The notes beneath the pieces were generated by a model. The model was not told the origin of the DNA and did not search any database. It worked only from the letters and a program-made list of their open reading frames with translations. From Candidatus Poseidoniaceae archaeon (GTDB taxonomy: Archaea > Thermoplasmatota > Poseidoniia > Poseidoniales > Poseidoniaceae), in contig CALSTM010000003.1 of the NCBI GenBank assembly GCA_943789275.1, forward strand, positions 515,935 through 579,934: DNA of 64,000 nucleotides, in the 5' to 3' direction. A program made the translations under genes and the position numbers. Positions 22,535-64,000 of the stretch are shown here, piece by piece (position 1 is the first letter of the stretch; each line of letters opens with the position of its first letter).

Positions 22535-24214
22535 TCAGGTTCTTCCCCACGCCTTGATTCGTTTAACAACAGCAACCGTCTGTTCAAGAGAGTATTTACT
22601 CGGTTCAATTGCGAATTTTGCTAAGACCGGGTCGTTGATGAGTGAAACCAAATCTCGGGCCGGCATAGCGTGGAACTCTTCCCGTGACAGACCGTTTTGG
22701 TTTCTTACCTTGGAGAGGAATACTTGTCGAATCTTGTCGGTCTTGGCATAGTATGTGTAACGGTTGGCATCGCCAAATCCGTAGTAAATGATGCTGAAGA
22801 CGTGTCGCCATGGTTCTGGGTCTCGCTTCTTGATGAGGACAGCCTCGAATGCGATGAACAGACCGAGGAACAGCAGGAGCATAGCAAGTCCTTCACCGGT
22901 GAAATAGACCAACAAGAAGTAAACGGTGTTGTAGGAGTCTGCCAACAAACCGTTTTGCGGATGTCTTGATTCATCGAAAATAACCATGGCGTTCTCAGAA
23001 GGTTGCCCCTCCTCGCCAATTTTACTGGACATCAACGCTTCAGCAATGAAATCCAGCGCCCATTTTCTGTTGTCGTTTTCAGGAATGCACTTGGTATTGT
23101 TGGTCACGCAGTCGTTTGTTCCGTACAATGGGTTGTTGGGGTCATTGAACCCTTCATAGTCGTAAATAGCATTGATCAGCGCAGAACCATCAGCCACGAA
23201 GACGATTCGACCGCCTTCATCGGGGTCGCATGATTTTCGAGCACATGCTTCGATGCTGAGGTTGAATTGTCCCCAAAGGTCAGGGGTTTCTGAGTTGACT
23301 TCGTTACCGACCCAGATTTCACCGTCACCGTTGACATCAACCGTTGCTTCGTTACTGGTGACTGCACGGATGGACACTTCTGACAATGCCCCGTTAACGC
23401 CAGGAATGAGTTCCAAAGCAGTGATGTTGTTGAGCAACATTTGGTAGGTTGCGTTGTATTCAATCTCACCGCTGTTCCAATGGTGAGCGCACAAACCAGC
23501 ATCTTCCAGCGGCATGGATTGACCGTTCATGAGGCTGCACGGATGTGCTCCTTCTCCGCTGGCACCGCTCCATCGTTCATGGACTGAAATTGTCGTCGGG
23601 TCGATGCTGCTGCCGTTCATGCCACAAGGTGTTGCTTGTACACACATCCAGATGTAGTTGTAATCCAATTCCTGAACATAGGTTGTGTCGAAGAGCTGGT
23701 ATCCCGTGTATCGGACTCCATAGGCCTGTGCAATACTTCCTGCAAATCCATAGTCGTCAAGAACCAGTGCTGTACCACCTGCGTCGACGAACTCAACGAT
23801 AGCATCAATTTCAGACGGTGAATACCCGTCTTCGGAAGCGATGGTAATGAATCCGTCACTGTCGAACTGCGGCAGAGAAAGCGTATCACGTTCAACACCT
23901 GCTAAGATGTAGGTGGTGTTTCGCGGGTCTTCAATGTCCGCAAGAAGAAGTGGACTGCTCACCAATGAGTTGGTTTGAATGCCCATGTCCTTGATGTCTT
24001 GGCGAAACGCAGACATATCGTTCCAGTCGTCATCGTAAGCGGACAATTGGTTGGTGTTGGAAATATTAACGAAATTAATCAAAATACTCAGCAATAAAAT
24101 CAGCATGACCGACCAAAATGCGGCTTGTAGCCCAATTCTGCGATAGTTCAGATTTAATTCCTCAAGCATTGGGCCACCTCTAGAGCACTGTTCCGACATT
24201 CCCACGTGTTCCAT
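22535..24214 (-). CDS. DUF4350-like extracytoplasmic domain protein with N- and C-terminal TM anchors
   Basis: N-terminal TM (AAFWSVMLILLLSILINF), a large outside domain with ITIASEDGYSPSEIDAIVEFVDAGGTALVLDDYG and NAMVIFDESRHP (DUF4350-like), and a C-terminal TM (YFLLVYFTGEGLAMLLLFLGLFIAF). Confidence 0.5.
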   Translation of the reverse strand: MEHVGMSEQCSRGGPMLEELNLNYRRIGLQAAFWSVMLILLLSILINFVNISNTNQLSAYDDDWNDMSAFRQDIKDMGIQTNSLVSSPLLLADIEDPRNTTYILAGVERDTLSLPQFDSDGFITIASEDGYSPSEIDAIVEFVDAGGTALVLDDYGFAGSIAQAYGVRYTGYQLFDTTYVQELDYNYIWMCVQATPCGMNGSSIDPTTISVHERWSGASGEGAHPCSLMNGQSMPLEDAGLCAHHWNSGEIEYNATYQMLLNNITALELIPGVNGALSEVSIRAVTSNEATVDVNGDGEIWVGNEVNSETPDLWGQFNLSIEACARKSCDPDEGGRIVFVADGSALINAIYDYEGFNDPNNPLYGTNDCVTNNTKCIPENDNRKWALDFIAEALMSSKIGEEGQPSENAMVIFDESRHPQNGLLADSYNTVYFLLVYFTGEGLAMLLLFLGLFIAFEAVLIKKRDPEPWRHVFSIIYYGFGDANRYTYYAKTDKIRQVFLSKVRNQNGLSREEFHAMPARDLVSLINDPVLAKFAIEPSKYSLEQTVAVVKRIKAWGRT

Positions 24215-49978: not shown

Positions 49979-52900
49979 ATGCCCAGCATACGCCATGCGA
50001 ATTTCAACCGAGCCGTCGTTTTATCGCTCTTGATGATGATGATGACCCAAGTTGGTTATCTTGAATCCATGAACCCGTGGACAAACGGCGAAGAAACGCT
50101 CGACTCGAACGAAGTGATTTCACATACGTCTGCTGCAACGTCCGTGATGTATGGGAACAATTCGTTGTGGGCTCCTGACGGTAGTCAAATATTCAATGCT
50201 GGCGATGAAATGATGGCCGTTACATCCGATGTTGTGTTTTATATAGGAGCCACTAATCAAAACCCTCAAGACTTTGAGAAATGTTTGGCTGCATACAACT
50301 CCTCCAACATGACGAGATGGATTCCAAACATTGCAGGTCGATCAAATACCTGCTCTAGTAGTGTAGTAGGCCAGTCGATTGCTGAATTCAACTTCATTAC
50401 TCAAGTCGATGGACTCACATTTTTTGTCATGAAGGCCTCCCCAGGCAGGCAACAGATTCATGCCTACAATCCTGCAAACGACACGGTGTATCTTCACGAC
50501 ACCTCCCGTACTGGAAAAACTATTCTTGATAGTGTTGCAATTGGCAGAACAATATACTCACTGCAAAACTACCCCTTTATGATGACAGCATACAACATTG
50601 ACAATGGTTCTTCATGGGATATCTCAACTTCATCCCAATATTTTGTTGGTTTAAACGCCGTAGGAGGCAAAATTCTAGCTTTCAACAACAATACACAACA
50701 ACCATCGGGTCCGAATAATTGCAGCTACACAGGTTCATGTTATGAGCCATGGATTTACGATCCAGCCAACAACACATGGTTCAGGCCAACAAGAGGAAAC
50801 GAAATCATCAACAGGCCCATTGCGACAAGTGATTCCAAAGCCCTTGTCACCAATGGACAGATGTTTTGGGCTGACACTAACTACACCTACGGAATGGGTG
50901 CGTGGGTGTTTGATTCATCCAACAACACATATTGGATGCTTGATGCAAATGCGTCAACAGGGATGTCAACTATCACAACTGGACGATCTTCAGCAATTCG
51001 TTCTGGAACATCAATTTTCTATCTTACCAGACCTGCGTATTCGGTTTCCGGGCAAACCTTGTATGGCCTCGATCTTTGGGGTTACAGCACTGTCAATTCG
51101 TCGAGTTGGCGTCTATCGAACATCACGGAATTGCACCAACCTGATGCTCAATATGGATGTTCACAACAGCTTGCCGGACTCGCCAATGGCGATTTTGTGA
51201 TGTCCTTCGGGCGGGGTACGGGTTGCAACACGGTAGAAGTCGTATTTTATTCTTTAACCAACGACACGGCATGGCAAGTTTCTGGACTCGACTCTCCAAG
51301 CGATACCTCAAAGGTTTATTCTTTTCAGGGAAATGATATGGGACTATTGGGGGTTTATGGGAACACTGTTTATCTGAAGGGTAAAACTGCATACCCTTCC
51401 TATGAGCATGGACTCATTGCTTATGACGCTACGAATGGTTCATCGTATTCAACAACGGTTACGGGAGGATTCATCTCTGGTATTACCAGTAACCAGCCCG
51501 TACTCGGAAACGGGGGTCAATTCGTTTTCACGATGGGAAGTTATACCTGTGACTGTAACCCTTCTTGGGCAGATAGCTCCAGATATTCGTTTGCAGTCTG
51601 GACACCAACCGCTATCACCGTTAGCGATGCATGGAATCTCACACCTGGTCAGCGTATCGATGGACCGATTACAGGAGGTTTGGGCGGCGCATCGGATTCG
51701 GGTGTAGGCGTTCAAAATCTAACTGCCAGTGCCGAAGGTGCAGAACTCATCATCGACGAGGCCATGACCAACATCACCTTCCAATACAATTCCAGTGCGG
51801 CAAGCGGCTCAGGCGGCGGCTCAGGCGGCATGACCAACGTCACCGGTGCAACCTGCAGCGTTTCACCTTCTCTTCCAACCGGCCTATCCATCGACAGCGG
51901 CACGTGCACCATCAGCGGTACACCTTCAGTTGCAACAACGAACACAACTTACACGGTCACGGCGGTCATGAGCGGTGTGACCTACCAGACAACGGTATGG
52001 CTCTCAAGCGCTTACCTCCCACTCACGCCAAGTGTCGAAGGTGCAGAACTCATCCTCGATGAGGCCATGACCAACATCACCTTCCAGTACAACGCCAGTG
52101 CAGCAAGCGGCTCAGGCAGCGGCTCGGGCAGCGGCGGCATGACCAACCTCACCAATGCAACAAGTTGTGTTGCTTCACCAAGCCTACCAACCGGCCTGTC
52201 CATCGACAGCAGCACGTGCACCATCAGCGGTACACCAACGGTTGCGACGACAAACACGACCTACACGGTCACCGCCAACATCAGCAACGTAACCTACCAG
52301 CCAACGGTATGGCTCTCAAGCGCTTACCTACCACTCACGCCAAGTGTCGAAGGTGCAGAACTCATCCTCGATGAGGCCATGACCAACATCACCTTCCAGT
52401 ACAACGCCAGTGCAGCAAGCGGCTCAGGCAGCGGCTCAAATCAATCAAGTTTCGTCAATAACATCGGACTGAGAACCACATCGGGTTCAGCCACTCAAAT
52501 GATCAATGGGACAGCCATCACACCGATTGAATTCTCTCTTGAATGGGACAATTTCTCCCTGCCGAGTAATCTGAGTTCCAATGAAAAGGTGACATTCCCG
52601 TTCGACCATTCGTTCAACGACACATCGTCCACGCCCATGGAAAACTCAACCGCTTCGAACCTCACCTACGACCGACACGGCCGAGAAATGCACGCCCTGG
52701 ATGATGAAATTGAATACGGTTGGAGTGCGACAAATCGCAGTGAATTGGCAATCAATTCAAACACCATTTCACTCTCTCTTTGGGTAAAGCCAACCAATGT
52801 TGGGACAGTGCAAAACATCATCGACAACCACCCACAATACGACCTTAGAATAGATGCAAACGGGGCGCTCAGCTTCAGAATACGTCAAACTGGCAACGGA

Positions 52901-55900
52901 GCGTGGAACGACCATTATTCGAGCATACAACTCGAGAATGATGTGTGGTATCACATTGGCGTATCCGCAACGTACAGCAGCGGTTACGTGGTGAATTTCT
53001 ACGTAAATGGGTCGTCTGATGTCACGCGAACATCATCAGGTACTCAATTTACATCAACGTCAGGGACTACTTTAGGCCTCAGCAGTGCCGATAGTTGGTA
53101 TGATGGCTTTGATGGTGTTCTTGATGACCTGTACATATACGACGGACTCCTCTCTGCATCGAATTTTGCCACACTGATGGATGTCGGTGAAATCACGTGG
53201 GATATTTCGCCCGCTCTTCCGAGTGAATTGTCGCTGGATACAATCACAGGGACAATCACTGGAACACCTCCTAGCTCCCAAGGCGCAGGCCAATACACGG
53301 TGTATGCCAACTCCTCCACGACTTCCTATTCGCGAACATTCAACCTGAGTTTGAATTCATTCATGCCCACCGTCACCGGTGCAACATGTACGGTTTCACC
53401 TTCCCTTCCAACCGGCCTGTCCATCGACAGCAGCACGTGCACCATCAGCGGTACACCAACGGTTGAGACGAGCAACACGACCTACACGGTCACCGCCAAC
53501 ATCAGCAACGTGACCTACCAGGGCAGCGTGTGGTTGTCCACCTCGACGTTCGGCACCATCACCTCAGCGGTGGAAGGTGCGGCGCTCAACTTGGGTGAAG
53601 CGATGACCCCGATCACGCTCAATTACACGGTGAACGTCAACGCTTCATCTGGTTCTTCAGGATCTTCCGGTTCCAGTGGAGGCTCGGGTTCAAGCGGCGG
53701 CTCTTCGAGTTCCTCGTCCTCTGTTTATGCAAACAACAAGCTGTCTGCTGGATCTTCCCACACCTGTGCCATCCTTGACAACGGCGACCTGAAGTGTTGG
53801 GGGCTGGGATGGCACGGACAGTTGGGCGATGGAGGAAGCGGGTTTAGCTACGACACCAACGCACCTTCATCCACCGCCATCAACCTCGGCAGTGGCCGAA
53901 CGGCCGTTGCTGTGTCTGCTGGAGGTTCCCACACCTGCGCCATCCTTGACAACGGCGACCTGAAGTGTTGGGGGTATGACGGCTACGGACAGTTGGGCGA
54001 TGGAGGAAGCAACACGAACACCAACGCACCTTCATCCACCGCCATCAACCTCGGCACGGGCCGCACGGCCGTTGCTGTGTCTGCTGGAGGTTCCCACATC
54101 TGCGCCATCCTTGACAACGGCGACCTGAAGTGTTGGGGGCGGGACAATTACGGACAGTTGGGCGACGGTGGAAGCAACACGGACACCAACGCACCTTCAT
54201 CCACCGCCATCAACCTCGGCACGGGCCGAACGGCCGTTGCGGTGGCTGCTGGATCTTACCATGAGTTTACCTGTGCCATCCTTGACAACGGCGACCTGAA
54301 GTGTTGGGGGCGGGACACTTCGGGACAGTTGGGCGATGGAGCAGGCACCAATAACCTCAACGCACCTTCTTCCACGCCGATTGACCTTGGCAGTGGCCGA
54401 ACGGCCGTTGCGGTGTCTGCTGGAAGTGCCCACGCCTGCGCCATCCTTGACAACGGTGACCTGAAGTGTTGGGGGTCTAACTCCTTTGGGTCGTTGGGCG
54501 ATGGAGGAAGCCACGCGTACACCAACGCACCTTCATCCACCGCCATCAACCTCGGCACGGGCCGAACGGCCGTTGCTGTGTCTGCTGGAAATGGCTTCAC
54601 CTGCGCCATCCTTGACAACGGTGAGGCGAAGTGTTGGGGGTATGACTACAGTGGACAGTTGGGCGATGGAGGAAGCAACACGAACACCAACGCACCTTCA
54701 TCCACCGCCATCAACCTCGGCACGGGCCGAACGGCCGTTGCGGTGGCTGGTGGAAATGGCCACAACTGCGCCATCCTTGACAACGGTGAGGCGAAGTGTT
54801 GGGGGTATAACTCCCAAGGAGAGTTGGGCGACGGTGGAAGCAACACCAATCAGGGTTCACCGGTAGCTGTTTCTGGCAGCAACACCTGGGATGCCACGAC
54901 CACCATCGCCACTTGGGAAACACACCCTGCTTTACCAGCGGGCATGAGCATCTCAGGCGGTACGATCAGCGGCACACCTTCGGTCTATGCGACCAATCAA
55001 ACCTACACGATTTACGCCAATAAGAGCGGTTATTCAACCACGCACGAGTTGTACTTTAGCGTGGATACAGACAATGCGCATACCGTCGTTGAAAATCAGA
55101 CGATTGATCCAATTGGCTTCCATCCTCCGTTCTGGAACGGTACGACCGCTTGGACGGTCTCACCTGCCTTGCCGGGCAACCTCTCCATCAACGGAAGCAC
55201 CGGTGAAATCACCGGAACGGTCAACGGAACGCTGACCAACACCACCTACACGGTGACAGCGACGCACAGTGGCTCAGGCGCTGCAACGGAAACCTTCTCG
55301 TTCAACTTGCAGAGTCTTGCTGATTACGATGGCGACGGTCTTGCCAACGACTTGCCAAGCGATTACGATGCAGCTGAAGGGCCAACCTCTGGTCTTGTTG
55401 CTGACGATGATGACGACGGCGACGGCCTTGCCGACAGCATCGAAACGAATACTGGAACCTACATTGACGCCAGCGATACGGGCACCGACCCATTGAATCC
55501 AGACACCGACGGTGATGGTATCTGCGACGGACCAAATGCAGTACCTCCAATCTGTGTTGCAGGTCCAGACATGGACCCGAACGGTGAGAGTTTCCCACCA
55601 ACCTTGGTGGCCATCAACAACACCGCCATCTCAACGCTTGCTCCATACTTGGCAGTAAGCGGTGGAACGTACGAAATTGCACCCGACTTGCCAGCAACCC
55701 TGTCACTTGACCCCGCAACCGGTGAAATCACCGGTACACCGACCGAAACCATCACCAACACGACCTTCACCATGTGGTCGAACAACTCCAACGGTGATTC
55801 TCTCTCGTGGAACTTCACCATTGAAATCTTGGAAGACAGCGACGGCGACGGAATGCCAAACGAACTTCCGGGCGATTATGATCCAACCAACCCTGATGCA

Positions 55901-56881
55901 CCTGGCCTTGTGGAAGACACTGACGATGATAACGACGGACTTTCCGACACCAACGAATCAGAGATTGGCACCAATCCACTCAACCCAGATACAGACGGCG
56001 ACGGTATGTGCGACGGACCTGTGGCTTCGCCACCAGACTGCGTTGCTGGCCCTGACGCCTTCCCGCTTGACCCTGCTGGCGACACCGATACAGACGGCGA
56101 CGGCAACCCAGACACGCTTAACCCTCCTTCAAACAGCGACCCTGCTTTGGTTGAGGACTTGGACGACGACGGTGACGGCTTGGACGACGTGAACGAAACG
56201 GGCACGGGCATCTACAACAGCAGCACTGACACGGGAACCGACCCGCTTGACCCAGACACCGATAACGACGGTATTTGCGACGGACCGAACGCTGTCTATG
56301 ACGTTCAAGGCAACCTCATCTGCGTTGCTGGACCTGACGATACACCGTTTGGCGAAGCTGCGGAAGGGGTTGTGTATGGCTTGAACAACACACAGTTCTC
56401 AAGTCTCGTACCGCCTTACCAATTGCCTGGTGCAACATGGAGTATTTCTCCAGACTTGCCTGATGGACTGAGCATTGACCCAGTCAGCGGAATCATCAGC
56501 GGAACACCGACTGAAGTGATGGACAACATCACCTTCACCATTTTCGGCATCGCTCTGATACCTCATCCATCACCTTTGATTTCAACTTGCAAATTTTGGA
56601 AGACACTGACCGCGACGGTCTGCCCAACGACCTGCCCGACGATTATCCGGTTGACGGAGAACTCATCGAAGACTTGGACGACGACGGTGATGGTGCTTCT
56701 GACCTCTCAGAAACCGGTACTGGAATCTACAACGGAACGGATGACATGGGTACAGACCCGCTTGATCCTGATACGGATGATGACGGAATCTGTGACGGTC
56801 CAAACGATGTTCTGCCGCAATGTATCGGTGGTCCTGACTCCAATCCGTTTGGTACTGGACCGCTCGGGCCTACAGTTTTAG
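49979..56881 (+). CDS. giant cell-surface adhesin-like protein, N-terminal 2300-aa segment (frame A) of a gene apparently broken by frameshifts
   Basis: Signal peptide (VVLSLLMMMMTQVGYL), an NxS/T-rich Kelch-like region, three ~103-aa near-identical CADG/He_PIG-type Ig-like repeats (SPSLPTGLSIDSSTCTISGTPTVATTNTTYTVTA), a LamG/ConA-like lectin domain (SLWVKPTNVGTVQNIID...), a Ser/Gly linker, seven RCC1-like repeats (CAILDNGDLKCWG..GQLGDGG), more He_PIG domains and TSP type-3-like Ca-binding repeats (DTDGDGICDGPN, DDDDDGDGLAD). Confidence 0.8.
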   Translation: MPSIRHANFNRAVVLSLLMMMMTQVGYLESMNPWTNGEETLDSNEVISHTSAATSVMYGNNSLWAPDGSQIFNAGDEMMAVTSDVVFYIGATNQNPQDFEKCLAAYNSSNMTRWIPNIAGRSNTCSSSVVGQSIAEFNFITQVDGLTFFVMKASPGRQQIHAYNPANDTVYLHDTSRTGKTILDSVAIGRTIYSLQNYPFMMTAYNIDNGSSWDISTSSQYFVGLNAVGGKILAFNNNTQQPSGPNNCSYTGSCYEPWIYDPANNTWFRPTRGNEIINRPIATSDSKALVTNGQMFWADTNYTYGMGAWVFDSSNNTYWMLDANASTGMSTITTGRSSAIRSGTSIFYLTRPAYSVSGQTLYGLDLWGYSTVNSSSWRLSNITELHQPDAQYGCSQQLAGLANGDFVMSFGRGTGCNTVEVVFYSLTNDTAWQVSGLDSPSDTSKVYSFQGNDMGLLGVYGNTVYLKGKTAYPSYEHGLIAYDATNGSSYSTTVTGGFISGITSNQPVLGNGGQFVFTMGSYTCDCNPSWADSSRYSFAVWTPTAITVSDAWNLTPGQRIDGPITGGLGGASDSGVGVQNLTASAEGAELIIDEAMTNITFQYNSSAASGSGGGSGGMTNVTGATCSVSPSLPTGLSIDSGTCTISGTPSVATTNTTYTVTAVMSGVTYQTTVWLSSAYLPLTPSVEGAELILDEAMTNITFQYNASAASGSGSGSGSGGMTNLTNATSCVASPSLPTGLSIDSSTCTISGTPTVATTNTTYTVTANISNVTYQPTVWLSSAYLPLTPSVEGAELILDEAMTNITFQYNASAASGSGSGSNQSSFVNNIGLRTTSGSATQMINGTAITPIEFSLEWDNFSLPSNLSSNEKVTFPFDHSFNDTSSTPMENSTASNLTYDRHGREMHALDDEIEYGWSATNRSELAINSNTISLSLWVKPTNVGTVQNIIDNHPQYDLRIDANGALSFRIRQTGNGAWNDHYSSIQLENDVWYHIGVSATYSSGYVVNFYVNGSSDVTRTSSGTQFTSTSGTTLGLSSADSWYDGFDGVLDDLYIYDGLLSASNFATLMDVGEITWDISPALPSELSLDTITGTITGTPPSSQGAGQYTVYANSSTTSYSRTFNLSLNSFMPTVTGATCTVSPSLPTGLSIDSSTCTISGTPTVETSNTTYTVTANISNVTYQGSVWLSTSTFGTITSAVEGAALNLGEAMTPITLNYTVNVNASSGSSGSSGSSGGSGSSGGSSSSSSSVYANNKLSAGSSHTCAILDNGDLKCWGLGWHGQLGDGGSGFSYDTNAPSSTAINLGSGRTAVAVSAGGSHTCAILDNGDLKCWGYDGYGQLGDGGSNTNTNAPSSTAINLGTGRTAVAVSAGGSHICAILDNGDLKCWGRDNYGQLGDGGSNTDTNAPSSTAINLGTGRTAVAVAAGSYHEFTCAILDNGDLKCWGRDTSGQLGDGAGTNNLNAPSSTPIDLGSGRTAVAVSAGSAHACAILDNGDLKCWGSNSFGSLGDGGSHAYTNAPSSTAINLGTGRTAVAVSAGNGFTCAILDNGEAKCWGYDYSGQLGDGGSNTNTNAPSSTAINLGTGRTAVAVAGGNGHNCAILDNGEAKCWGYNSQGELGDGGSNTNQGSPVAVSGSNTWDATTTIATWETHPALPAGMSISGGTISGTPSVYATNQTYTIYANKSGYSTTHELYFSVDTDNAHTVVENQTIDPIGFHPPFWNGTTAWTVSPALPGNLSINGSTGEITGTVNGTLTNTTYTVTATHSGSGAATETFSFNLQSLADYDGDGLANDLPSDYDAAEGPTSGLVADDDDDGDGLADSIETNTGTYIDASDTGTDPLNPDTDGDGICDGPNAVPPICVAGPDMDPNGESFPPTLVAINNTAISTLAPYLAVSGGTYEIAPDLPATLSLDPATGEITGTPTETITNTTFTMWSNNSNGDSLSWNFTIEILEDSDGDGMPNELPGDYDPTNPDAPGLVEDTDDDNDGLSDTNESEIGTNPLNPDTDGDGMCDGPVASPPDCVAGPDAFPLDPAGDTDTDGDGNPDTLNPPSNSDPALVEDLDDDGDGLDDVNETGTGIYNSSTDTGTDPLDPDTDNDGICDGPNAVYDVQGNLICVAGPDDTPFGEAAEGVVYGLNNTQFSSLVPPYQLPGATWSISPDLPDGLSIDPVSGIISGTPTEVMDNITFTIFGIALIPHPSPLISTCKFWKTLTATVCPTTCPTIIRLTENSSKTWTTTVMVLLTSQKPVLESTTERMTWVQTRLILIRMMTESVTVQTMFCRNVSVVLTPIRLVLDRSGLQF
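51725..52440 (+). repeat. about 2.4 copies of a 303-312-bp near-identical tandem repeat encoding CADG/He_PIG-like domains
   Basis: AGTGTCGAAGGTGCAGAACTCATCCTCGATGAGGCCATGACCAACATCACCTTCCAGTACAACGCCAGTGCAGCAAGCGGCTCAGGC recurs at 52031 and 52343. Antisense ORFs 51712-51945 and 52012-52257 are near-identical. Confidence 0.8.
53741..54870 (+). repeat. seven tandem RCC1-like repeats (156-159 bp each) with high nucleotide identity
   Basis: Recurring GCCATCCTTGACAACGGCGACCTGAAGTGTTGGGGG...GGACAGTTGGGCGATGGAGGAAGCAAC. Seven blades fit an RCC1-type beta-propeller. Confidence 0.8.
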
Positions 56882-59157
56882 TCAACAATTCGATGACTGC
56901 ACCAATTCCTCCAGCAAACCCAGTACCAGGTGCAGTTTGGGAAGTCTCTCCTGACTTGCCGGATGGCCTCGTGCTCGACCCAGCAACGGGAATCATTACC
57001 GGAACGCCAACACAATCAATGGACAACACGACGTTCACCATGTGGGCCAACACAACCACGCCAAGCATGTCGATTATCTCGACGTTCTGGCTTGAAGTGC
57101 TTGAGGACAGCGACGGTGATGGAATGCCAGACGCACTTCCAGACGATTATCCTGACATGAATCCACCTTACGATTTGGTCGAAGATTTGGACGACGATAA
57201 CGACGGTATGTCGGATGACGATGAAGCAATCATTGGAACCGACCCTACCAATCCTGATTCAGACGGCGACGGATTCTGTGATGGTAACGGAACGGGCGAT
57301 GGCGACTGCTATGCAGGACCTGACTCCTCACCGCTTGACCCAGCACTGCCAGCCAATACTGATGGTGATGCGTATCCTGATGACGACCCAGACGGTGAAG
57401 GCGGCTTAGTTGCTGATACCGATGACGACAACGATGGTTTCCTTGATACCCGTGAATTGGAGTGTCTATCTGACTCTCTCGATGCGACAGACGTGCCTGA
57501 AGACCTTGATGGTGACGGGGAATGTGATGCATTAGACGACGATATTGACGGTGACGGATTGATCAACGATCTTGAATCCAATACTGGTGTTTACAATCCA
57601 CCTTTCGAAACAGGAACAGACCCTCGTAATGCTGACACCGATGGTGACGGCGTTTGCGATGGCGACGAATCTCCACCGAACAACAATTGCACTGCAGGAC
57701 ACGATGCGTTCCCGCTTGACCCTGCAGCTCACGCAGACACTGACGGTGACGGGTTCCCTGACGAACTGTTCGGAAATTCAACCAGCACTCCTCCACTCAC
57801 GCTCGATATGGACGATGACAACGATGGATGGACCGACGTTGATGAAACGGCGTGCGGCACAGACAGTTTGGATGACGCAAGTACACCCGTTGATACCGAT
57901 GTAGACGGCATTTGTGATGCACTGGATGACCTGTTGGATCTACCGTTTACGATGACATACCCAACCCAAAATCTAACCATTGGAGTTGGCGAAGAAATGA
58001 TCCCTTTCCTGCCGAATATTACCGGTTTAGGAGAGGTTGCAACGTGGGAAATCAGTGGAGAATTGCCCGATGGCCTCACCTTTGGTTGGAGTCCTGCTCG
58101 AGATGCCTTGTTGGATGGAAGTATTCGCGGAACACCACTGAATGCCTCGGAAATGAGCAACCTCACCATCTGGGCGAACAATTCTGCTTACAGTCAATCG
58201 TTCGAAGTGTCTCTCACCGTCAACGATGTTGTTTCAGATGACAGTGATGGTGATGCTGAATCCAGTCTCAAGTGGGGTTACATCTGTTGTCCTTTACTGC
58301 TGTTGATTTTGCTTGCAGTGTTCTTAATCTTCATGCCAAATGAAAAGACCGTTTTGAAAGATGCAGAGCCTGAACATACGGTTGTGAAACCAAGAACAAA
58401 GAAAGGCAGTGGAACAGAAGATGATCCGTTTGTGTTGAAATCGATTAAGGGTGTAAAACCTGGAAGTCTTGTTTACAGCAAAGAAATCATCACAATCGAT
58501 GAGATTTCCCCGAACCTTTTGATTAAGTGTGAAGACCGTAACAGTTCTTCGAAGTTCCAAAGCATGAAATTGTCAAATGAACTGCTTGAAACAGACAGTG
58601 AAGAGGATGAACCAGCACTGATTTCTACAGCAATTAATGCGACTGAACACGGTGTCATTCGTTTCAAGTTGGTCTACGATGACAGCGAATTGCCAACATT
58701 TGCAGGCCAGACCGTCAAGGCCTTGGTTAAGGTTGGTAACAATTCTGTCTACTTCCTTTGGGAAATTGAAATCAAGAAAGATTCAGATTGGCAGAAAAAG
58801 ATGGCTGCGAGTGATGCAGAATCCGACGATGAATCTGGAAACGCTGTCGTCGAGTACGTCACTGAAAAAGCGACGGTTGCCAAAGAGAAAACGCACTCCG
58901 TTCTTGATATGGATGGCGACGGTAAACTCACCGTTGAAGACGTTAAGCGCGGTGCTACTCAAATGGCAGAAAACGCCAAGAAGGGCGTTGAAATCGTCAA
59001 AGAGAAGGTTGTTGCTGCTAAGGTTGCGACCGACGCCAAGCTTGCCGAAAGAAAAGCTGCTAAGGAAACCAAGGCTGCCAAGCAAGCCAAGGCCCAAGCC
59101 GATGCAGATGCCAAGGAAGCCAAAGCTGCAGAACAGAAGGCTGCGCAAGGAGGCTGA
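56587..59157 (+). CDS. same giant adhesin gene, middle segment (frame B): TSP3-like Ca-binding repeats, He_PIG domains, TM helix, cytoplasmic region with EF-hand-like loop
   Basis: Continues the domain series of the upstream segment after a frame change at ~56545-56590 (FTIFGIA | SDTSSITFDFNLQILEDTDRDGLPNDLPDDYP parallels earlier FTMWSNNSNGDSLSWNFTIEILEDSDGDGMPNELPGDYDP). TM helix WGYICCPLLLLILLAVFLIFM (~58270-58335). EF-hand-like LDMDGDGKLTVEDV. KA-rich helix begins. Confidence 0.7.
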   Translation: MQILEDTDRDGLPNDLPDDYPVDGELIEDLDDDGDGASDLSETGTGIYNGTDDMGTDPLDPDTDDDGICDGPNDVLPQCIGGPDSNPFGTGPLGPTVLVNNSMTAPIPPANPVPGAVWEVSPDLPDGLVLDPATGIITGTPTQSMDNTTFTMWANTTTPSMSIISTFWLEVLEDSDGDGMPDALPDDYPDMNPPYDLVEDLDDDNDGMSDDDEAIIGTDPTNPDSDGDGFCDGNGTGDGDCYAGPDSSPLDPALPANTDGDAYPDDDPDGEGGLVADTDDDNDGFLDTRELECLSDSLDATDVPEDLDGDGECDALDDDIDGDGLINDLESNTGVYNPPFETGTDPRNADTDGDGVCDGDESPPNNNCTAGHDAFPLDPAAHADTDGDGFPDELFGNSTSTPPLTLDMDDDNDGWTDVDETACGTDSLDDASTPVDTDVDGICDALDDLLDLPFTMTYPTQNLTIGVGEEMIPFLPNITGLGEVATWEISGELPDGLTFGWSPARDALLDGSIRGTPLNASEMSNLTIWANNSAYSQSFEVSLTVNDVVSDDSDGDAESSLKWGYICCPLLLLILLAVFLIFMPNEKTVLKDAEPEHTVVKPRTKKGSGTEDDPFVLKSIKGVKPGSLVYSKEIITIDEISPNLLIKCEDRNSSSKFQSMKLSNELLETDSEEDEPALISTAINATEHGVIRFKLVYDDSELPTFAGQTVKALVKVGNNSVYFLWEIEIKKDSDWQKKMAASDAESDDESGNAVVEYVTEKATVAKEKTHSVLDMDGDGKLTVEDVKRGATQMAENAKKGVEIVKEKVVAAKVATDAKLAERKAAKETKAAKQAKAQADADAKEAKAAEQKAAQGG

Positions 59158-60152
59158 AGCAAGCCAAGGCTGCTGAAGAGAAGGCTGCTAAGGAAGCCAA
59201 AGCACAAGCTGATGCTGACGCAAAGGCTGCCAAGCAAGCCAAGGCTGCTGAAGAGAAGGCTGAGAAGGAAGCTGAGAAGCAAGCCAAGGCCCAAGCCGAT
59301 GCAGATGCCAAGCAAGCCAAGGCTGCTGAAGAGAAGGCTGAGAAGGAAGCTGAGAAGCAAGCCAAGGCCCAAGCCGATGCAGATGCCAAGGAAGCCAAAG
59401 CACAAGCTGATGCTGACGCAAAGGCTGCTAAGGAAGCCAAGGCTGCTGAAGAGAAGGCGGCTAAGGAAGCCAAGGCTGCTGAAGAGAAGGCTGAGAAGGA
59501 AGCTGCTGCCAAGAAGAAGGCTGAGAAGAAACCAGCATCGAAGGAAGTCAAGAAAAAGGAAGAACTCAAGCGGGTTCAAGAACGCTCGGAAACGATTGAC
59601 TTTTCGATTCTTGGAACAGCCAAGGCAAGCGACAAAGACGACCTTCAAGTCATGAAGGGTATTGGCCCATTCATTGAAGAAAAGCTCAATGCGCTCGGAA
59701 TCTACACTTACCTACAAGTCTCGAAGATGACCTCAAAACTTGAAACAGACGTCAACGAGGCCATCGAGTTCTTCCCTGGCCGTGTCAAGCGAGACCAATG
59801 GGTCAACCAGGCGAAGATTTTGCTCGGTGAGGACGTGAAACTCGATGAGAAGGCACTCAAGCAAGCCGAAGACCTCGAACGAATCTCCAAGAAGGCTGAG
59901 TCAATTGACTTCGCTACGCTTGGTGTTGCAAGCGCTTCCGAGAAGGACTCGCTGCAGACAATCAAAGGGATTGGTCCGTTTATTGAAGAGAAGTTGAATG
60001 CGCTTGGTATTTACACCTTCGAACAAGTTGGAAACATGACGCCTGATATTGAAGAACAGGTCAACAAGGCCATCGAGTTCTTCCCAGGCCGTGTCAAGCG
60101 AGACCAATGGGCGAAGCAGTCAAGGGCTCTTCACGAACAAACTACTAAGTGA
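59157..60152 (+). CDS. same giant adhesin gene, C-terminal segment (frame C): KA-rich repeat linker plus two HhH (DUF4332-like) repeats
   Basis: The KA-rich frame (KQAKAAEEKAEKEAEKQAKAQADADAK...) runs without stops from ~59157 into the track ORF 59652-60152. That ORF has two repeats of [I/M]KGIGPFIEEKLNALGIYT[Y/F].QV..MT......V..AIEFFPGRVKRDQW..Q (HhH/DUF4332-like). The junction is a 1-nt deletion (GCTGAAGCAAGCC versus paralogous GCTGAGAAGCAAGCC). Confidence 0.5.
   Translation, partial: KQAKAAEEKAAKEAKAQADADAKAAKQAKAAEEKAEKEAEKQAKAQADADAKQAKAAEEKAEKEAEKQAKAQADADAKEAKAQADADAKAAKEAKAAEEKAAKEAKAAEEKAEKEAAAKKKAEKKPASKEVKKKEELKRVQERSETIDFSILGTAKASDKDDLQVMKGIGPFIEEKLNALGIYTYLQVSKMTSKLETDVNEAIEFFPGRVKRDQWVNQAKILLGEDVKLDEKALKQAEDLERISKKAESIDFATLGVASASEKDSLQTIKGIGPFIEEKLNALGIYTFEQVGNMTPDIEEQVNKAIEFFPGRVKRDQWAKQSRALHEQTTK
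59233..59388 (+). repeat. perfect 78-bp tandem duplication (26 aa: AKQAKAAEEKAEKEAEKQAKAQADAD) within a longer degenerate KA-rich repeat tract (~59000-59560)
   Basis: 59233-59310 is identical to 59311-59388 (AGCAAGCCAAGGCTGCTGAAGAGAAGGCTGAGAAGGAAGCTGAGAAGCAAGCCAAGGCCCAAGCCGATGCAGATGCCA). Confidence 0.9.
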
Positions 60153-60207: not shown

Positions 60208-63200
60208 ATGCACGGTGCGGATGCTTTGCTCCCTCTAACATTAAAAGCGAACAAGACTGCCTCGAATGGCTCGAACTCGCTAAAATCGGTGATTTTGTCG
60301 CTCTTGATGATTTCAATGTCCCTCTCAGCGGGAATTGTTCAATCAAGTCCTTCCCACGAGACTCTGGAAAAGTCTTCGAGCGAACTGAGCTTGTCGACAA
60401 TTTCTGACTCCGTCTCATCAGGCCTTGCTGAACTGAGCAGCTTGTTGGGGTTGGTTGAAGATCAGCCAGCCGAACTTGAACAATCCAATGCTGATGCGAT
60501 GTTGACTGGGGGTCGCTCCGTTCCTTCAGTATCGTATTCTCCCAGTACGTTCAACCTCGTTCGTAACACAGCAATGAGCGACCAAACGCCCACCTCATCT
60601 GGGGGCACGGTAACTTCTTGGTCTATTTCGCCGACTCTTCCTTCAGGTATTTCGATTTCATCATCGACGGGTACAATCTCCGGAACGCCGACTGTAATCA
60701 GCGCATCGACCTCCTACACTGTGACAGCAACCAACGGTGCCGGCAGCGATACTGCAACCATCACCATCTCCGTTACCGATGCTTTGCCGGTTATCGTTTA
60801 CTCTCCGAACACATTCACCGAGGCTGTGGGCACTGCAATGACGTCGGTCACACCGACATCGTACGCAGGTACGGTCGATTCTTACTCGATTTCTCCGTCG
60901 CTACCTCCGGGTTTGTCCTTGGATACCAGCACGGGTACCGTTAGCGGAACGCCAACTGCCGTCTCTTCATCAACATCCTACACCGTAACGGCGACCAACT
61001 CCGCAGGTACAGACACCGCCTCCCTCACTATTGTCGTCAATGACGTTGCACCAACTTCGATCAGTTACTCTCCGAACACATTCACGTTAACGAAGGGGAC
61101 ATTGATTTCTACGGTCACGCCGACCTCAAGTGGAGGGGCTGTCACATCATGGACCATTTCACCGTCTCTTCCAGCAGGACTTTCTTTGGCCTCTTCCGAT
61201 GGTGCAATCAGCGGAACACCGACTGAAGTGTCATCGTTACAAACTTACACCGTGACAGGTACGAACACTGGCGGGAGTGCTACTGCAGAGATCACGATTC
61301 AAGTCAATGATGTTGCTCCAATCATCGGTTACCCTACGACTTCTTACACCCTGGTCAAGGGTAGTGCCATGTCGAGCCCTGCAACACCTACCTCAACCGG
61401 TGGTACAGTTGTTACTTGGGATGTATCCCCTACCCTTCCATCAGGCCTCACTATTTCCAGTTCCACTGGTGTTATTTCAGGAACACCCACAACCGTTACT
61501 TCTTCTGCAGTCTACACCGTTACTGCGACCAACACCGGAGGCACAGATACAGCAACTGTGACCATTCAAGTCAATGATGTACAGCCGCTTATCGGTTATT
61601 CTCCGAGCTCTATTTTGTTGTCAAAGGGTACGACGATGTCGCCTGCCAGTCCAACGTTGTACGGCCAAGGACAAGTAGACTCATGGTCCGTCTCACCTTC
61701 TCTCCCCGCTGGAATAAGTCTTGACTCATCAACTGGTATCATCACCGGGATGCCTACCACTATCAGTCCCTCCGCTACGTACACCATCACTGCAACGAAC
61801 ACCGGTGGTACCGATACTGCAACCCTCACCATTACCGTCAATGATGCTACACCTTCAATTGCATTCTCTACGAATTCATTTACCCTGACCAAAGGCACTG
61901 CGATGACAACTACTACTCCATCATCAACCGGAGGAGCAGTTGTCACATGGTCTATCTCTCCATCGCTCTCGGCGGGGCTCTCTTTTGATTCTTCGACAGG
62001 AACACTTTCTGGAACACCAACCGTGGTTTCAGCCTCTACAGTCTACACGATTACTGCAACCAACACTGGCGGCAGTGATTCGGCTACCGTAACCATCGTT
62101 GTCAACGATATTGCTCCATCCGCTATAGCTTACAGCCCAAGTTCCTTCACCCTGACCAAGGATTCGGCTATGACTGCTGCCACACCTACCTCGAGCGGAG
62201 GTACAGTCGTCTCTTGGGCTGTTAGTCCATCGCTCCCAGCAGGTCTCTTATTGGATACCTCAACAGGTGAGATTTCTGGAACACCTACAGCCGTGACCTC
62301 TTCTGCCACCTACACCGTTACTGCAACCAACACCGGTGGCGATGCTACAACCACCGTGACCATCGTTGTCAACGACGTGATTCCATCTTCAGTTTCGTAC
62401 AGCGACAGTCCGTTTACTTTGACGAAAGATTCCCTCATGACGGCTTCTACGCCAACATACAGCGGAGGGACAGTCATCTCTTGGGCTGTTTCTCCATCGC
62501 TCCCAGCAGGTCTTGCCTTCTCTACCTCGACCGGTGAAATTTCAGGTACTCCATCGGCCGTCACTTCTTCGGCAACCTATACCATTACGGCAACCAACAC
62601 CGGTGGTGACGCTACGACCACCGTGACCATCGTTGTCAACGACATTATTCCATCTTCAGTTTCGTACAGTGGCAGTCCGTTTACCTTGACGAAAGATTCC
62701 TTGATGACGGCATCTACACCAACTTACAGCGGCGGAACAGTCATCTCTTGGGCAGTTAATCCTTCGCTCCCAGCAGGTCTTGTTCTCGATACTTCTACCG
62801 GAGAAATTTCCGGAACGCCTACAGCCGTGACCTCTTCTGCAACCTACACCATTACAGCCTCCAACACCGGTGGCAGCGCTACGACCACCGTGACCATCGT
62901 TGTCAACGACATCATCCCATCATCGGTTACTTACAGCCCGAATTCATTCACCCTGACCAAAGACAGCAGCATGACTGCTACTACACCAACCGCAAGTGGC
63001 GGTCCAGTCGTATCTTGGGCTGTTTCTCCATCGCTACCTGCTGGCATAGTCATCGATTCATCCACCGGTGAGATCAGCGGAACCCCAACAGCTGTGACCT
63101 CTTCGGCAACCTACACCATTACAGCCACCAACACCGGTGGTAGCGCTACGACCACTGTTACCATCGTTGTCAACGACATTATTCCATCATCGGTTGCCTA

Positions 63201-64000
63201 CAGCCCGAATTCATTCACCCTGACTAAAGACAGCAGCATGACTGCAACTACGCCTACTTCGAGCGGCGGTCCAGTCGTTACTTGGACAGTCTCTCCAACG
63301 CTACCTGCTGGCATAGTCATCGATTCATCCACCGGTGAGATTTCTGGAACCCCTACAGCCGTCACTTCTTCGGCAACCTACACCATTACGGCCACCAACA
63401 CCGGTGGTGACGCTACGACTACTGTTACCATCGTTGTCAACGACATCATCCCATCATCAGTTTCGTACAGTGACAGTCCGTTTACCTTGACGAAGGGTAC
63501 AACCATGACGGCCTCAACCCCGACCTCGAGTGGCGGTACCGTCATTTCCTGGGCTGTTTCTCCATCGCTCCCAGCAGGTCTTGCCTTCTCTACCTCGACC
63601 GGTGAAATTTCAGGTACTCCATCGGCCGTCACTTCTTCGGCAACCTATACCATTACGGCAACCAACACCGGTGGTGACGCTACGACAACCGTGACCATCG
63701 TTGTTAACGACGTGATTCCGTCTTCAGTCTCTTACAGCGGAAGTCCGTTCACATTGACCAAAGACTCGGCTATGACCGCAGCCACACCTACTTCCAGCGG
63801 CGGTACCGTTGTATCGTGGGCAGTCTCTCCTTCACTCCCTTCGGGCTTGGTTATCGATTCATCAACCGGTGTGATCAGCGGAACACCTACAGCAATCACT
63901 GCTTCAGCAACCTATACCATTACAGCCACCAACACCGGTGGAGACGCTACGACAACCGTGACCATCGTTGTCAACGACATTATTCCATCTTCAGTTTCGT
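60208..64000 (+). CDS. second giant surface protein, 3'-truncated by the window edge: signal peptide plus more than 13 tandem CADG/He_PIG (dystroglycan-type cadherin-like) domains
   Basis: Not in the ORF track because it runs off the window. The frame is open from the ATG at 60208 (after an in-frame TAA at 60154) to 64000. N-terminus SVILSLLMISMSLSAGIV (signal/anchor). Repeats of ...SYSPNSFTLTKDSxMTAxTPTSSGGxVxSWAVSPSLPAGLxxDSSTGEISGTPTAVTSSATYTITATNTGGDATTTVTIVVNDIIP. Confidence 0.8.
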   Translation, partial: MHGADALLPLTLKANKTASNGSNSLKSVILSLLMISMSLSAGIVQSSPSHETLEKSSSELSLSTISDSVSSGLAELSSLLGLVEDQPAELEQSNADAMLTGGRSVPSVSYSPSTFNLVRNTAMSDQTPTSSGGTVTSWSISPTLPSGISISSSTGTISGTPTVISASTSYTVTATNGAGSDTATITISVTDALPVIVYSPNTFTEAVGTAMTSVTPTSYAGTVDSYSISPSLPPGLSLDTSTGTVSGTPTAVSSSTSYTVTATNSAGTDTASLTIVVNDVAPTSISYSPNTFTLTKGTLISTVTPTSSGGAVTSWTISPSLPAGLSLASSDGAISGTPTEVSSLQTYTVTGTNTGGSATAEITIQVNDVAPIIGYPTTSYTLVKGSAMSSPATPTSTGGTVVTWDVSPTLPSGLTISSSTGVISGTPTTVTSSAVYTVTATNTGGTDTATVTIQVNDVQPLIGYSPSSILLSKGTTMSPASPTLYGQGQVDSWSVSPSLPAGISLDSSTGIITGMPTTISPSATYTITATNTGGTDTATLTITVNDATPSIAFSTNSFTLTKGTAMTTTTPSSTGGAVVTWSISPSLSAGLSFDSSTGTLSGTPTVVSASTVYTITATNTGGSDSATVTIVVNDIAPSAIAYSPSSFTLTKDSAMTAATPTSSGGTVVSWAVSPSLPAGLLLDTSTGEISGTPTAVTSSATYTVTATNTGGDATTTVTIVVNDVIPSSVSYSDSPFTLTKDSLMTASTPTYSGGTVISWAVSPSLPAGLAFSTSTGEISGTPSAVTSSATYTITATNTGGDATTTVTIVVNDIIPSSVSYSGSPFTLTKDSLMTASTPTYSGGTVISWAVNPSLPAGLVLDTSTGEISGTPTAVTSSATYTITASNTGGSATTTVTIVVNDIIPSSVTYSPNSFTLTKDSSMTATTPTASGGPVVSWAVSPSLPAGIVIDSSTGEISGTPTAVTSSATYTITATNTGGSATTTVTIVVNDIIPSSVAYSPNSFTLTKDSSMTATTPTSSGGPVVTWTVSPTLPAGIVIDSSTGEISGTPTAVTSSATYTITATNTGGDATTTVTIVVNDIIPSSVSYSDSPFTLTKGTTMTASTPTSSGGTVISWAVSPSLPAGLAFSTSTGEISGTPSAVTSSATYTITATNTGGDATTTVTIVVNDVIPSSVSYSGSPFTLTKDSAMTAATPTSSGGTVVSWAVSPSLPSGLVIDSSTGVISGTPTAITASATYTITATNTGGDATTTVTIVVNDIIPSSVS
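60520..64000 (+). repeat. 267-bp (89-aa) tandem repeat array with a higher-order ~1068-bp periodicity; the last ~8 copies are near-identical
   Basis: Antisense ORFs 62310-62564 and 63378-63632 differ by 3 aa and lie 1068 bp (4 x 267) apart. The protein shows repeated 89-aa units ending in VTIVVND. Confidence 0.85.

Follow-up and report, generated by a model that had tools for sequence, protein, structure and literature searches.

A conserved, predicted cytoplasmic cassette ending in helix–hairpin–helix modules on giant surface proteins of Poseidoniales archaea

Introduction

This study concerns a gene for a giant surface protein (positions 49979–60152, + strand) in a 64,000-nucleotide stretch of contig CALSTM010000003.1 from a Candidatus Poseidoniaceae archaeon, referred to here as the window, and in particular the long tail that follows the single transmembrane (TM) helix of that protein and ends in two helix–hairpin–helix (HhH) modules. 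Marine Group II archaea (Poseidoniales) exceed all other planktonic archaea of the surface ocean in abundance and are uncultured, and discussion of their giant surface proteins has treated these only as adhesins. These giants resemble LapA, SiiE and MpIBP in having a long, repetitive ectodomain of immunoglobulin (Ig)-like and Ca-binding type with a predicted role in adhesion; LapA, SiiE and MpIBP differ in being anchored via outer-membrane plugs or the cell wall. In the papers searched, a long structured cytoplasmic tail is reported neither for the bacterial nor for the archaeal giants. The ‘thrombospondin’ genes of Poseidoniales have been discussed as adhesion proteins (Rinke et al., 2019; PMC6461757).

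The closest described relatives of the C-terminal modules come from Alphaproteobacteria. In protein-O of D. shibae and Urf1 of Rhodovulum sulfidophilum the module is tethered at the cytoplasmic face of the membrane via an N-terminal TM element (PMC12079452, PMC13066640). Modules of the same family occur in NuoE, protein-3h, the ribosomal proteins S2 and L21 and the phasin PhaH, and in this whole group, as in the window protein, a long linker, flexible or charged, precedes the module, which forms the very C-terminal end. The window protein differs from the NuoE/Urf1 group in that a stop-transfer helix, belonging to an extracellular adhesin of 2,760 residues, serves as its anchor, in that the module is duplicated, in the presence of a conserved β domain beside the membrane and in its archaeal host.

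Single features of the tail have counterparts in several further systems. ComEA, the HhH protein that serves competent bacteria as a membrane-anchored DNA receptor, binds DNA without sequence specificity and, like the window protein, has a single-pass anchor bearing HhH units; those of ComEA, however, face the cell exterior or the periplasm and bind incoming DNA, whereas the window modules are predicted to face the cytoplasm and match other HhH families. Topoisomerase V of Methanopyrus kandleri contains tandem (HhH)2 arrays in which the HhH unit is multiplied for DNA avidity, and relatives of the window module likewise reach 17–25 tandem copies, but the topoisomerase is a soluble enzyme without a membrane anchor and the likeness drawn here is one of architecture. 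Charged helical spacers are known from TolA domain II, whose helix spans the periplasm, and from ER/K single α-helices (SAH). The window tail shares with them a putative long spacer beside a TM helix that is rich in Lys, Ala and Glu, has few bulky hydrophobic residues and is able to form i/i+4 charge pairs; TolA, in contrast, is periplasmic, and repeats of the window type vary in length from 26 to 308 residues among strains and orthologues. Integrin and cadherin tails and the linker of nucleoskeleton and cytoskeleton (LINC) complexes provide a functional analogy only, as single-pass adhesion receptors whose cytoplasmic tails reach a large structure inside the cell; they are not homologous to the window protein, in which such a link is hypothetical.

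An earlier note on this DNA had suggested that a tail of this type is undescribed for archaeal adhesins, and indeed no description of such cytoplasmic tails was found in the Poseidoniales literature searched. The literature searched on COG3743, DUF4332 and membrane-anchored HhH proteins gave nothing on module function beyond two papers on the light-harvesting 1–reaction centre (LH1-RC) complex. As far as found, a conserved, predicted cytoplasmic cassette of 400–600 residues, in which HhH modules follow a putative Ig-like domain and a spacer, is new for archaeal giant adhesins.

Results

The window gene encodes a giant surface protein with a 605-residue tail

After both frame breaks in the window were patched from assemblies of the same population (see below), a single open reading frame (ORF) of 3,391 amino acids extends from 49979 to 60152 on the + strand, on which all of the features of this gene lie. 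The product is predicted to be a type I giant surface protein, of which ∼2,760 amino acids form the N-terminal ectodomain. Its N-terminus, MPSIRHANFNRAVVLSLLMMMMTQVGYLES (49979–50068), was taken from the ORF list and is the same in the assemblies L004 and L005 (among the relatives, L denotes a locus or contig and P a protein). By inspection it resembles a signal peptide, with a basic n-region and a hydrophobic core. The ectodomain (50069–58272) is made up, as judged from Pfam, of He_PIG Ig-like repeats (2.4e-49), an RCC1 β-propeller (RCC1_2, 3e-61), Asp-rich TSP3 repeats (TSP3_bac) and a LamG-like stretch. It is followed by a single TM helix, WGYICCPLLLLILLAVFLIFM (58273–58335), which is the only strongly hydrophobic 19-mer of the tail region (Kyte–Doolittle 19-mer mean up to 2.93) and is kept in seven orthologues.

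The earlier note had proposed a long tail beyond a TM helix at ∼58270–58335. In the repaired frame 605 residues follow the helix, and they comprise a juxtamembrane region with a β domain, an acidic linker with an EF-hand-like loop, a spacer rich in Lys, Ala and Glu (K/A/E) and two HhH modules.

The cassette is common to many Poseidoniales giant proteins

A profile of the TM helix and post-TM region (alignment A3) matched 26 of the 146 listed representatives, which stand for clusters at 50% identity. In all 26 the order within one ORF is TM helix, post-TM β domain, linker and one to three modules, with a linker of 26–308 residues and a K+A+E fraction of 0.3–0.87. Orthologues thus keep the tail, and this shows, at the level of predicted domain order, that the cassette is conserved and common to many different giant surface proteins of the Poseidoniales.

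Relatives in which the cassette is carried by one intact ORF are 1,100–2,859 residues in length. Four of these, P0155 (2,859 residues, recurrent on three JGI contigs), P0159 (2,398 residues; NCBI MEK9694575.1, ‘putative Ig domain-containing protein [Candidatus Poseidoniales archaeon]’), P0266 (2,188 residues) and P0153 (1,668 residues), have one layout in common. Behind a signal-like N-terminus the ectodomain is built from He_PIG and TSP3 repeats together with repeats of either the RCC1 or the ELW type; a single TM helix leads into the conserved post-TM region, and one or two modules close the protein at its C-terminus after a linker rich in K/A/E. Together with the repaired ORF, these proteins bear out the proposal of the earlier note that the tail is part of a giant surface protein. 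In P0270 the TM helix, the β domain and one module are present and the linker is almost nil. The protein P0001, on the nanopore-plus-pilon contig L001, is a 73%-identical orthologue in which the TM helix is followed by the post-TM region, the EF loop, the K/A/E repeat and, last, two modules, with frameshifts at other places than in the window. On the Illumina scaffold L088 the frame is unbroken on either side of a 100-N gap: ahead of the gap it leads from the ectodomain over the TM helix and post-TM domain into the K/A/E repeat, and behind the gap on into the modules.

Variation within the group was also observed. P0002, a Poseidoniales tail fragment of 268 residues, contains three HhH modules, so that the number of copies within the group is one to three. 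Moreover, most orthologues have an extra conserved domain of ∼75 residues between the spacer and the first HhH module, with the consensus TLK.EVKKGA..LEVA.A.EF..SG.AA..D..GS.VI.W.GK.GN.LTGV.GVTRVF. It is found at ∼9600–9770 of L001, at ∼6020–6260 of L088 and in P0056, P0063, P0085, P0153 and P0155, and is missing in the window species and in P0159.

A word-index search recovered more than 1,200 short proteins that are fragments, many of them labelled ‘partial’, whose starts are the first Leu or Met after the repeat. With the post-TM region this search found P0001 only, and profile A3 found 10 fragments only. The family was missed by the word-index search because of its limited sensitivity and because giant genes are often uncalled. 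On the TARA scaffolds L088 and L091–L093, upstream of a 259-residue gene, the gene caller had placed small minus-strand ORFs over the plus-strand giant protein, and such misses help to account for the scarcity of giant proteins in the protein collection and for the recovery of fragments only by the word-index searches. Pattern scans based on alignment A1, covering GTDB species genomes and JGI metagenomes, gave pattern matches but confirmed no relative.

The C-terminal modules are of the Cdd1/COG3743 type

HhH module 1 (59595–59840; IDFSILG...KGIGPFIEEKLNALGIYTYLQV...FFPGRVKRDQW) and HhH module 2 (59904–60149, with the stop codon to 60152) were delimited by tblastn and BLASTP against each other, by Pfam and NCBIfam matches and by AlphaFold2 (AF2) modelling. 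They are 65% identical (E 5e-42) and are joined by an inter-module helix, EDVKLDEKALKQAEDLERISKKAES (59841–59903), which corresponds to residues 90–108 of the AF2 model and is conserved in alignment A2. The protein ends five residues past the profile match of module 2.

The earlier note had regarded the two repeats as HhH modules of the DUF4332 type and had pointed to HHH_5 and DUF4332 as the Pfam families concerned. For the window protein both families score under their cut-offs: HHH_5 (PF14520) reaches 21.4 bits against 27, and DUF4332 (PF14229) 19.8 bits against 23.2, with a match to the first 30 of the 122 profile positions only. Cdd1 (PF11731), in contrast, scores 30.0 bits and exceeds its cut-off of 25.5. 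The HhH nature of the repeats is therefore upheld, by the Cdd1 match, the G-I-G hairpin and an all-helical AF2 model, and the DUF4332 assignment is replaced, the best family being Cdd1/COG3743. By profile matching the modules are of this type, that is, the C-terminal module of NuoE and Urf1. Some relatives carry a precomputed PF14229 match, which indicates that the families are related and does not make DUF4332 the best assignment. Further, weaker matches were to IMS_HHH and TfoX_C, both under their Pfam cut-offs, and to RadA and Pol IV.

The NCBIfam matches fall on C-terminal extensions, namely profile positions 285–389 of 400 in NuoE (PRK12373, E 3.6e-38), 243–330 of 334 in S2 (PRK12311), 139–221 of 223 in L21 (PRK12278) and 139–231 of 234 in the phasin PhaH; the cores of these proteins are unmatched. 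In sequence searches of the PDB, the chains of Urf1 (9wqv_a, E 2e-12, whose deposited name is ‘NADH:ubiquinone oxidoreductase 41 kD complex I subunit’) and protein-O (8yy9_O, E 8e-12) matched at residues 151–226. The AF2 model of the tandem is all-helical, with five short helices per module, a mean predicted local distance difference test score (pLDDT) of 88.6 and a predicted template modelling score (pTM) of 0.74. Both modules contain the hairpin KGIGPF, in line with the canonical HhH pattern h-x-x-h-x-G-h-G. Of 416 modules, 97% keep G8 and 80% keep G10, and the conserved positions comprise D1, L3, I6, G8, G10, L17, G21, Q27, G48, R49, R52, W55, Q58, A59 and L62.

A family search with one module returned 8,193 cluster representatives at E ≤ 1e-3. 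The module is nearly always at the extreme C-terminus, at a median of five residues from the end, and it is C-terminal in 118 of 143 listed representatives. Close relatives of the window tail are named ‘predicted flap endonuclease-1-like 5' DNA nuclease’ by JGI, which is also the title of COG3743. Copies per protein range from one to at least 17 by profile, and up to 25 matched stretches were found by HMMER. Module arrays match HHH_5 (9e-33) as well as IMS_HHH, BAF and HRDC, and multi-copy relatives pass the HHH_5 cut-off easily (113 bits for P0122). The longest arrays observed, of 20–25 tandem modules with ∼30% identity to the query, are in P0122 (3,033 residues), P0123 (3,115 residues) and P0124 (2,280 residues). 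No second copy of the cassette was found by tblastn in the window or in the fetched loci.

Two further arrangements were seen among the relatives. In P0247 an HhH module is attached to a multi-TM PAS-GGDEF-EAL protein. A large bacterial family that includes P0125, P0130–P0137, P0144, P0161, P0167, P0171 and others combines an N-out TM anchor, a long coiled coil and one to four C-terminal HhH modules. In these proteins the N-terminus is short and uncharged, and the TM helix after it is followed by a K/R cluster, the coiled coil and then the modules. They resemble the window tail in the order anchor, rod and one to four modules, in a module identity of 45–62% and in the K/R cluster, which implies a cytoplasmic rod; they differ in having essentially no extracellular part, in that the rod is a heptad coiled coil and not a K/A/E repeat, and in lacking the β domain.

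The juxtamembrane β domain and the charged spacer

The conserved juxtamembrane region (58336–58791), defined from alignment A3, AF2 and Foldseek, contains a predicted β-sandwich domain of ∼120 residues that ends with SVYFLWEIEIKKD. In alignment A3 the seven orthologues are 27–68% identical over this region and share the motifs (G/D)(P/A)EPE(N/H)T and G.GT.DDPF(V/I)L, followed by the β-rich domain ending SVY..W.V.VK.D. No Pfam or NCBIfam match was obtained for the domain. An AF2 model built on a shallow alignment shows seven strands, with a pLDDT of 70–82 in the core and a mean of 55.7. With this low-confidence model the best Foldseek match in the PDB was a PapD-like domain of HYDIN (E 1.1e-4, target TM-score 0.58), and further matches were to the ASH domains of CEP192 and OCRL. 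The fold class can tentatively be given as an Ig-like β sandwich on the strength of the model. The β domain (∼150 residues) was missed in the earlier note and is the most family-specific part of the tail.

The spacer (59038–59579) is a K/A/E-rich repeat, with Q and D as further components, encoded by tandem DNA repeats with periods of 78 and 198 nucleotides. Its length of 181 residues agrees with the charged Lys/Ala repeat of ∼180 residues that had been described earlier. It consists of 38% A, 27% K, 18% E, 7% Q and 6% D, has a net charge of +8, offers 36 i/i+4 pairs of opposite charge and contains four bulky hydrophobic residues in 181. AF2 modelled its first 35 residues as a helix with low pLDDT. 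The composition makes an extended, charged α-helical rod probable, which would measure ∼27 nm if helical throughout. DNA binding by the K/A/E repeat itself, in the manner of histone H1 or PhaM, was considered as a main function and is unlikely, as the net charge is only +8 over 181 residues and 24% of them are acidic.

Near-identical assemblies (the window compared with L004 and L005) differ within the spacer by in-frame indels, corresponding to window positions 59152–59186 (36 nucleotides), 59305 (39 or 9 nucleotides) and 59421–59453 (33 nucleotides). This suggests that the number of repeats is truly polymorphic in the population, on top of sequencing noise.

Possible partners of the HhH modules

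In the reading that is favoured here, and that we judge to be about evenly poised between right and wrong, the tail would be a cytoplasmic cassette that docks the giant adhesin to a deep-lying partner, most probably nucleic acid. The β domain would sit beneath the membrane and the spacer would form a ∼27-nm rod that keeps the HhH modules away from it. Binding by the modules would then be multivalent and independent of sequence, to a bulky partner deep in the cell, which would most probably be the nucleic acid of the nucleoid. In this way the giant adhesin would be docked to the cell interior, for mechanical anchoring or for positioning or clustering, and would not be held by one lipid-embedded helix alone. 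A target away from the membrane is suggested because the rods hold the modules tens of nanometres off the membrane in both the archaeal and the bacterial proteins. Nucleic acid is favoured as the target because the family resemblances all point to HhH units that bind DNA non-specifically, and because tandem multiplication of the modules is also seen in binders that rely on avidity.

Several observations weigh against this reading. The modules are acidic on average, with a mean net charge of −2, unlike a simple electrostatic DNA binder, and some HhH domains mediate protein–protein contacts and do not bind DNA. Foldseek comparison of the tandem model with the PDB gave nothing significant, the weak resemblances being to the RadA N-terminal domain, NusA and the HhH region of Pol-iota, and no solved structure or assay of the module was found in the PDB and the literature searched. 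The intact frame of the window gene depends on other assemblies of the same population. Finally, the C-terminal domain of protein-O (D. shibae) and Urf1 (Rdv. sulfidophilum) was not resolved by cryo-electron microscopy and its function has been called obscure (PMC12079452, PMC13066640), so that the alphaproteobacterial module lends no mechanism to the present case.

Given the acidic modules, the nucleic-acid reading is followed close behind by the possibility that the modules are protein–protein docking or oligomerisation units, placed in the same cassette at the same cytoplasmic location and binding no nucleic acid, which in itself is a tentative proposal and somewhat unlikely. Their target would be either some cytoplasmic protein common to them or one another, with clustering of the different giant adhesins into patches, or recruitment of a shared factor, as the outcome. 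Net acidity apart, such a role is consistent with the invariant residues D1, W55, Q58, R49 and R52, which lie outside the classic hairpin and could shape a ligand pocket, and with the packing of the tandem model as one unit, as reflected in its pTM. It also fits the occurrence of the module on very different hosts (NuoE, S2, L21, PhaH, Urf1 and a GGDEF-EAL protein), like a generic localisation tag, and the precedent of RuvA domain III and the RadA N-terminal domain, both of which bind proteins. What speaks for a nucleic acid instead is that all sequence-family similarities are to DNA-binding HhH families and that the long rods preceding the modules suggest a distant, bulky target; in addition, no candidate partner gene is evident beside the locus.

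A more far-reaching version of the nucleic-acid reading is that the protein is a trans-envelope tether, which would couple adhesion to the nucleoid or another deep body as a prokaryotic counterpart of integrin- or LINC-type systems, with the HhH module acting as a general ‘dock to nucleoid’ tag. This idea is speculative and we consider it unlikely. If true, the same tag would recur in Alphaproteobacteria, attached to complex I (NuoE/Urf1), to LH1-RC, to ribosomal proteins and to polyhydroxybutyrate granules, and it would account for a widespread domain of obscure function.

The EF-hand-like segment is confined to two lineages

Between the β domain and the spacer lies an acidic linker with a lone EF-hand-like helix–loop–helix (58792–59037), identified by PROSITE PS00018, phmmer and AF2. 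The loop, DMDGDGKLTVED at 58906–58941, had been picked out in the earlier note and its presence is confirmed, DMDGDGKLTVEDV being an exact match to PS00018. In a phmmer search of the PDB with the 63-residue segment, the top 60 matches were all EF-hand proteins (E 1e-4 to 3e-3), and the loop aligns with EF loops of calmodulin and of Entamoeba CaBPs. The Pfam families EF-hand_5, EF-hand_1 and EF-hand_6 gave 12.8–13.9 bits, under their cut-offs of ∼25, and the helix–loop–helix of the AF2 model has a pLDDT below 50. EF-hands occur in pairs, but the 605-residue tail contains a single PS00018 match and the AF2 model no second helix–loop–helix, so no second EF-hand was found.

The segment is present only in the window species and in L001/P0001, and is absent from L088, P0155, P0159, P0266 and P0153. 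On this distribution it is a lineage-specific insert outside the conserved core and, being absent from the other orthologues, the EF-hand is not part of a conserved mechanism; at most it would contribute, in two lineages, a Ca-dependent modulation or a pairing of tails. The earlier note had seen a Ca-binding site coupled to HhH modules as the design of the tail and had taken it to suggest outside-in communication or else tethering to the nucleoid or a cytoskeletal partner. The design is not borne out, since the segment is missing from the five orthologous sequences named above, and outside-in communication is not supported as a general feature; tethering to the nucleoid or another partner is plausible. 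In its full form, the signalling idea holds that the EF-hand senses Ca2+ and controls HhH binding, and thereby couples outer adhesion to an inner response. The exact PS00018 match, the EF-hand proteins as best PDB sequence matches and the modelled helix–loop–helix are in its favour. A lone, unpaired EF-hand that falls under every Pfam cut-off and is modelled with low confidence, its absence from most orthologues, which means that it cannot be a conserved mechanism, and the lack of an obvious route for a signal through a single TM helix make Ca2+ signalling improbable.

Continuity of the reading frame and orientation of the tail

As assembled, the window divides the gene into several ORFs. The first (49979–56881, 2,300 residues) is out of frame over its last ∼110 residues. 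The second (56587–59157, 856 residues) covers the end of the ectodomain, the TM helix, ∼230 non-repetitive residues and the start of the K/A/E repeat, and is terminated inside that repeat by a TGA at 59155. From 59154 to 59650 a clean K/A/E repeat continues in the third frame without any ATG, GTG or TTG, and the last ORF (59652–60152, 166 residues) starts at 59652, the first such codon of the downstream frame. The exact 166-residue ORF is present on four further contigs, L004–L007, which are long-read-style assemblies from the ENA. These are near-identical to the window across the gene except in two zones, 56358–56628 and 59112–59501.

The first zone lies in internal repeats of the ectodomain and contains the other frame break, near 56450–56590; the differences from L004 and L005 cluster there, which marks it as an assembly artefact. 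L004 and L005 keep the frame through this zone, with an uninterrupted gene of 3,065 and 3,161 residues called in them respectively. In the second zone a local mis-assembly at 59140–59165, recognised by comparison with L005 and L006, produces the TGA at 59155 and a net −1 change of frame: the window reads GCTGCGCAAGGAGGCTGAAGCAAGCC where both L005 and L006 read GCTGCGAAGGAAGCTGAGAAGCAAGCC, in frame. The window letters at the 59155 break itself are GCTGCGCAAGGAGGC-TGAAGCAAGCC. When the L005/L006 reading was put into 59140–59165, an open frame of 1,188 residues (56587–60152) was obtained, and addition of a 56300–56650 patch from L004 or L005 gave the 3,391-residue ORF either way. Each assembly has private indels in the K/A/E repeat, at differing positions, while identity outside the repeats is near 100%. 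Because they sit in the sole two zones where same-population assemblies disagree, both frame breaks are explained as consensus (assembly) errors in repeats. For a peptide check of frame continuity, the stretches to use are KAAEQKAAKEAEKQAK and the spacer–HhH junction.

The earlier note had allowed that the K/A/E-plus-HhH part might belong to a separately translated gene. The TGA at 59155, and the proteins of 166–330 residues called in many assemblies, could be taken to mean that this part is a small gene of its own or that the locus is a decaying pseudogene. This is very improbable, and the idea of a separate gene was rejected: the K/A/E frame has no ATG, GTG or TTG upstream of 59652, the called starts are merely the first Leu or Met codon past the repeat, the position of the break varies between long-read assemblies that are otherwise ∼100% identical outside repeats, and intact one-ORF relatives already contradict it.

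The tail is placed in the cytoplasm on indirect evidence that is mutually consistent. A signal-like N-terminus, extracellular-type repeats over ∼2,760 residues and only one TM helix lead to this topology, with which the flanks of the helix agree, having acidic residues before it and K/R directly after it in all orthologues examined. The asymmetry of N-glycosylation sequons (2.75 per 100 residues in the ectodomain versus 0.66 in the tail) and of Cys residues (44 versus 1) points the same way, as do the other hosts of the module (NuoE, S2 and L21), which are cytoplasmic. In the bacterial relatives, too, N-out anchors with K/R behind the TM helix precede the HhH module. The cytoplasmic location that had been assumed for the tail is thus supported. 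That the tail is instead extracellular, through the opposite topology or through cleavage and shedding, might be argued from the K/A/E-rich helical regions of periplasmic TolA and from ComEA, whose HhH domains are outside the cell. Since signal-like sequence and He_PIG, TSP3 and RCC1 repeats put the N-terminal 2,760 residues outside and one TM helix puts the tail on the opposite side, and since charge flanks, sequon and Cys asymmetry and cytoplasmic module hosts all disagree with it, an extracellular tail is even less probable than a separate gene.

The weakest proposal, a programmed −1 ribosomal frameshift at AAGGAGGCUGA that would connect both frames, has in its favour a Shine–Dalgarno-like AAGGAGG immediately 5' of the TGA at 59155, superficially like the prfB site, and was rejected as next to impossible because that motif is itself a product of the local errors and is absent from L005 and L006, which have GAAGGAAGCTGAGAAG there, because there is no slippery heptamer, and because the position of the break is kept in no other assembly or orthologue.

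Host and other features of the window

A threonyl-tRNA synthetase (ThrRS) gene at 7048–9072 (+ strand) encodes a protein 88–92% identical to those of Candidatus Poseidoniaceae metagenome-assembled genomes, the window contains a CDC48-type ATPase gene, and tail fragments at 96–97% identity are named Candidatus Poseidonia alphae. On these three grounds the host is assigned to a Marine Group IIa archaeon. The ThrRS is of bacterial type, with identities of 65–92% within Poseidoniales, followed by 52–59% to Planctomycetota, Phycisphaerales and Verrucomicrobiota, a pattern that suggests an old bacterial origin of the enzyme in Marine Group II.

A second giant He_PIG gene starts 56 nucleotides past the stop codon of the first (60208–64000, + strand) and runs off the window. 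At 10557–20501 of L004 it is represented by 1,488 residues plus more than 5,289 residues, and at 10557–20501 of L005 by more than 6,833 residues. Strongly negative GC skew at 60–64 kb coincides with this gene, and no HhH cassette was found within its fetched part. An ORF of 1,059 residues at 16624–19803 (+ strand) has a weak similarity to Rad50/SMC-like coiled coils (E 2e-7). The ORFs at 9082–11634, 11631–13490, 22535–24214 and 43950–46481 gave no NCBIfam match, and a tRNA scan of the window found none.

Discussion

In long-read assemblies the genes described here are systematically interrupted, and in short-read ones they are cut short. More than 1,000 database fragments that are named ‘hypothetical protein, partial’ or ‘flap endonuclease-1-like nuclease’ are accordingly adhesin tails as judged from the present comparison. 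The tandem module, of 190 residues, is a compact and well-predicted object that is open to biochemical testing.

The analysis also links an archaeal family to the enigmatic module found on alphaproteobacterial NuoE, Urf1/protein-O, S2, L21 and PhaH. For the Poseidoniales themselves, a conserved and structured cassette on the inner side of the membrane would mean that the cell interior is specifically linked to the giant surface proteins, whether for anchoring, positioning, clustering or contact with the nucleoid.

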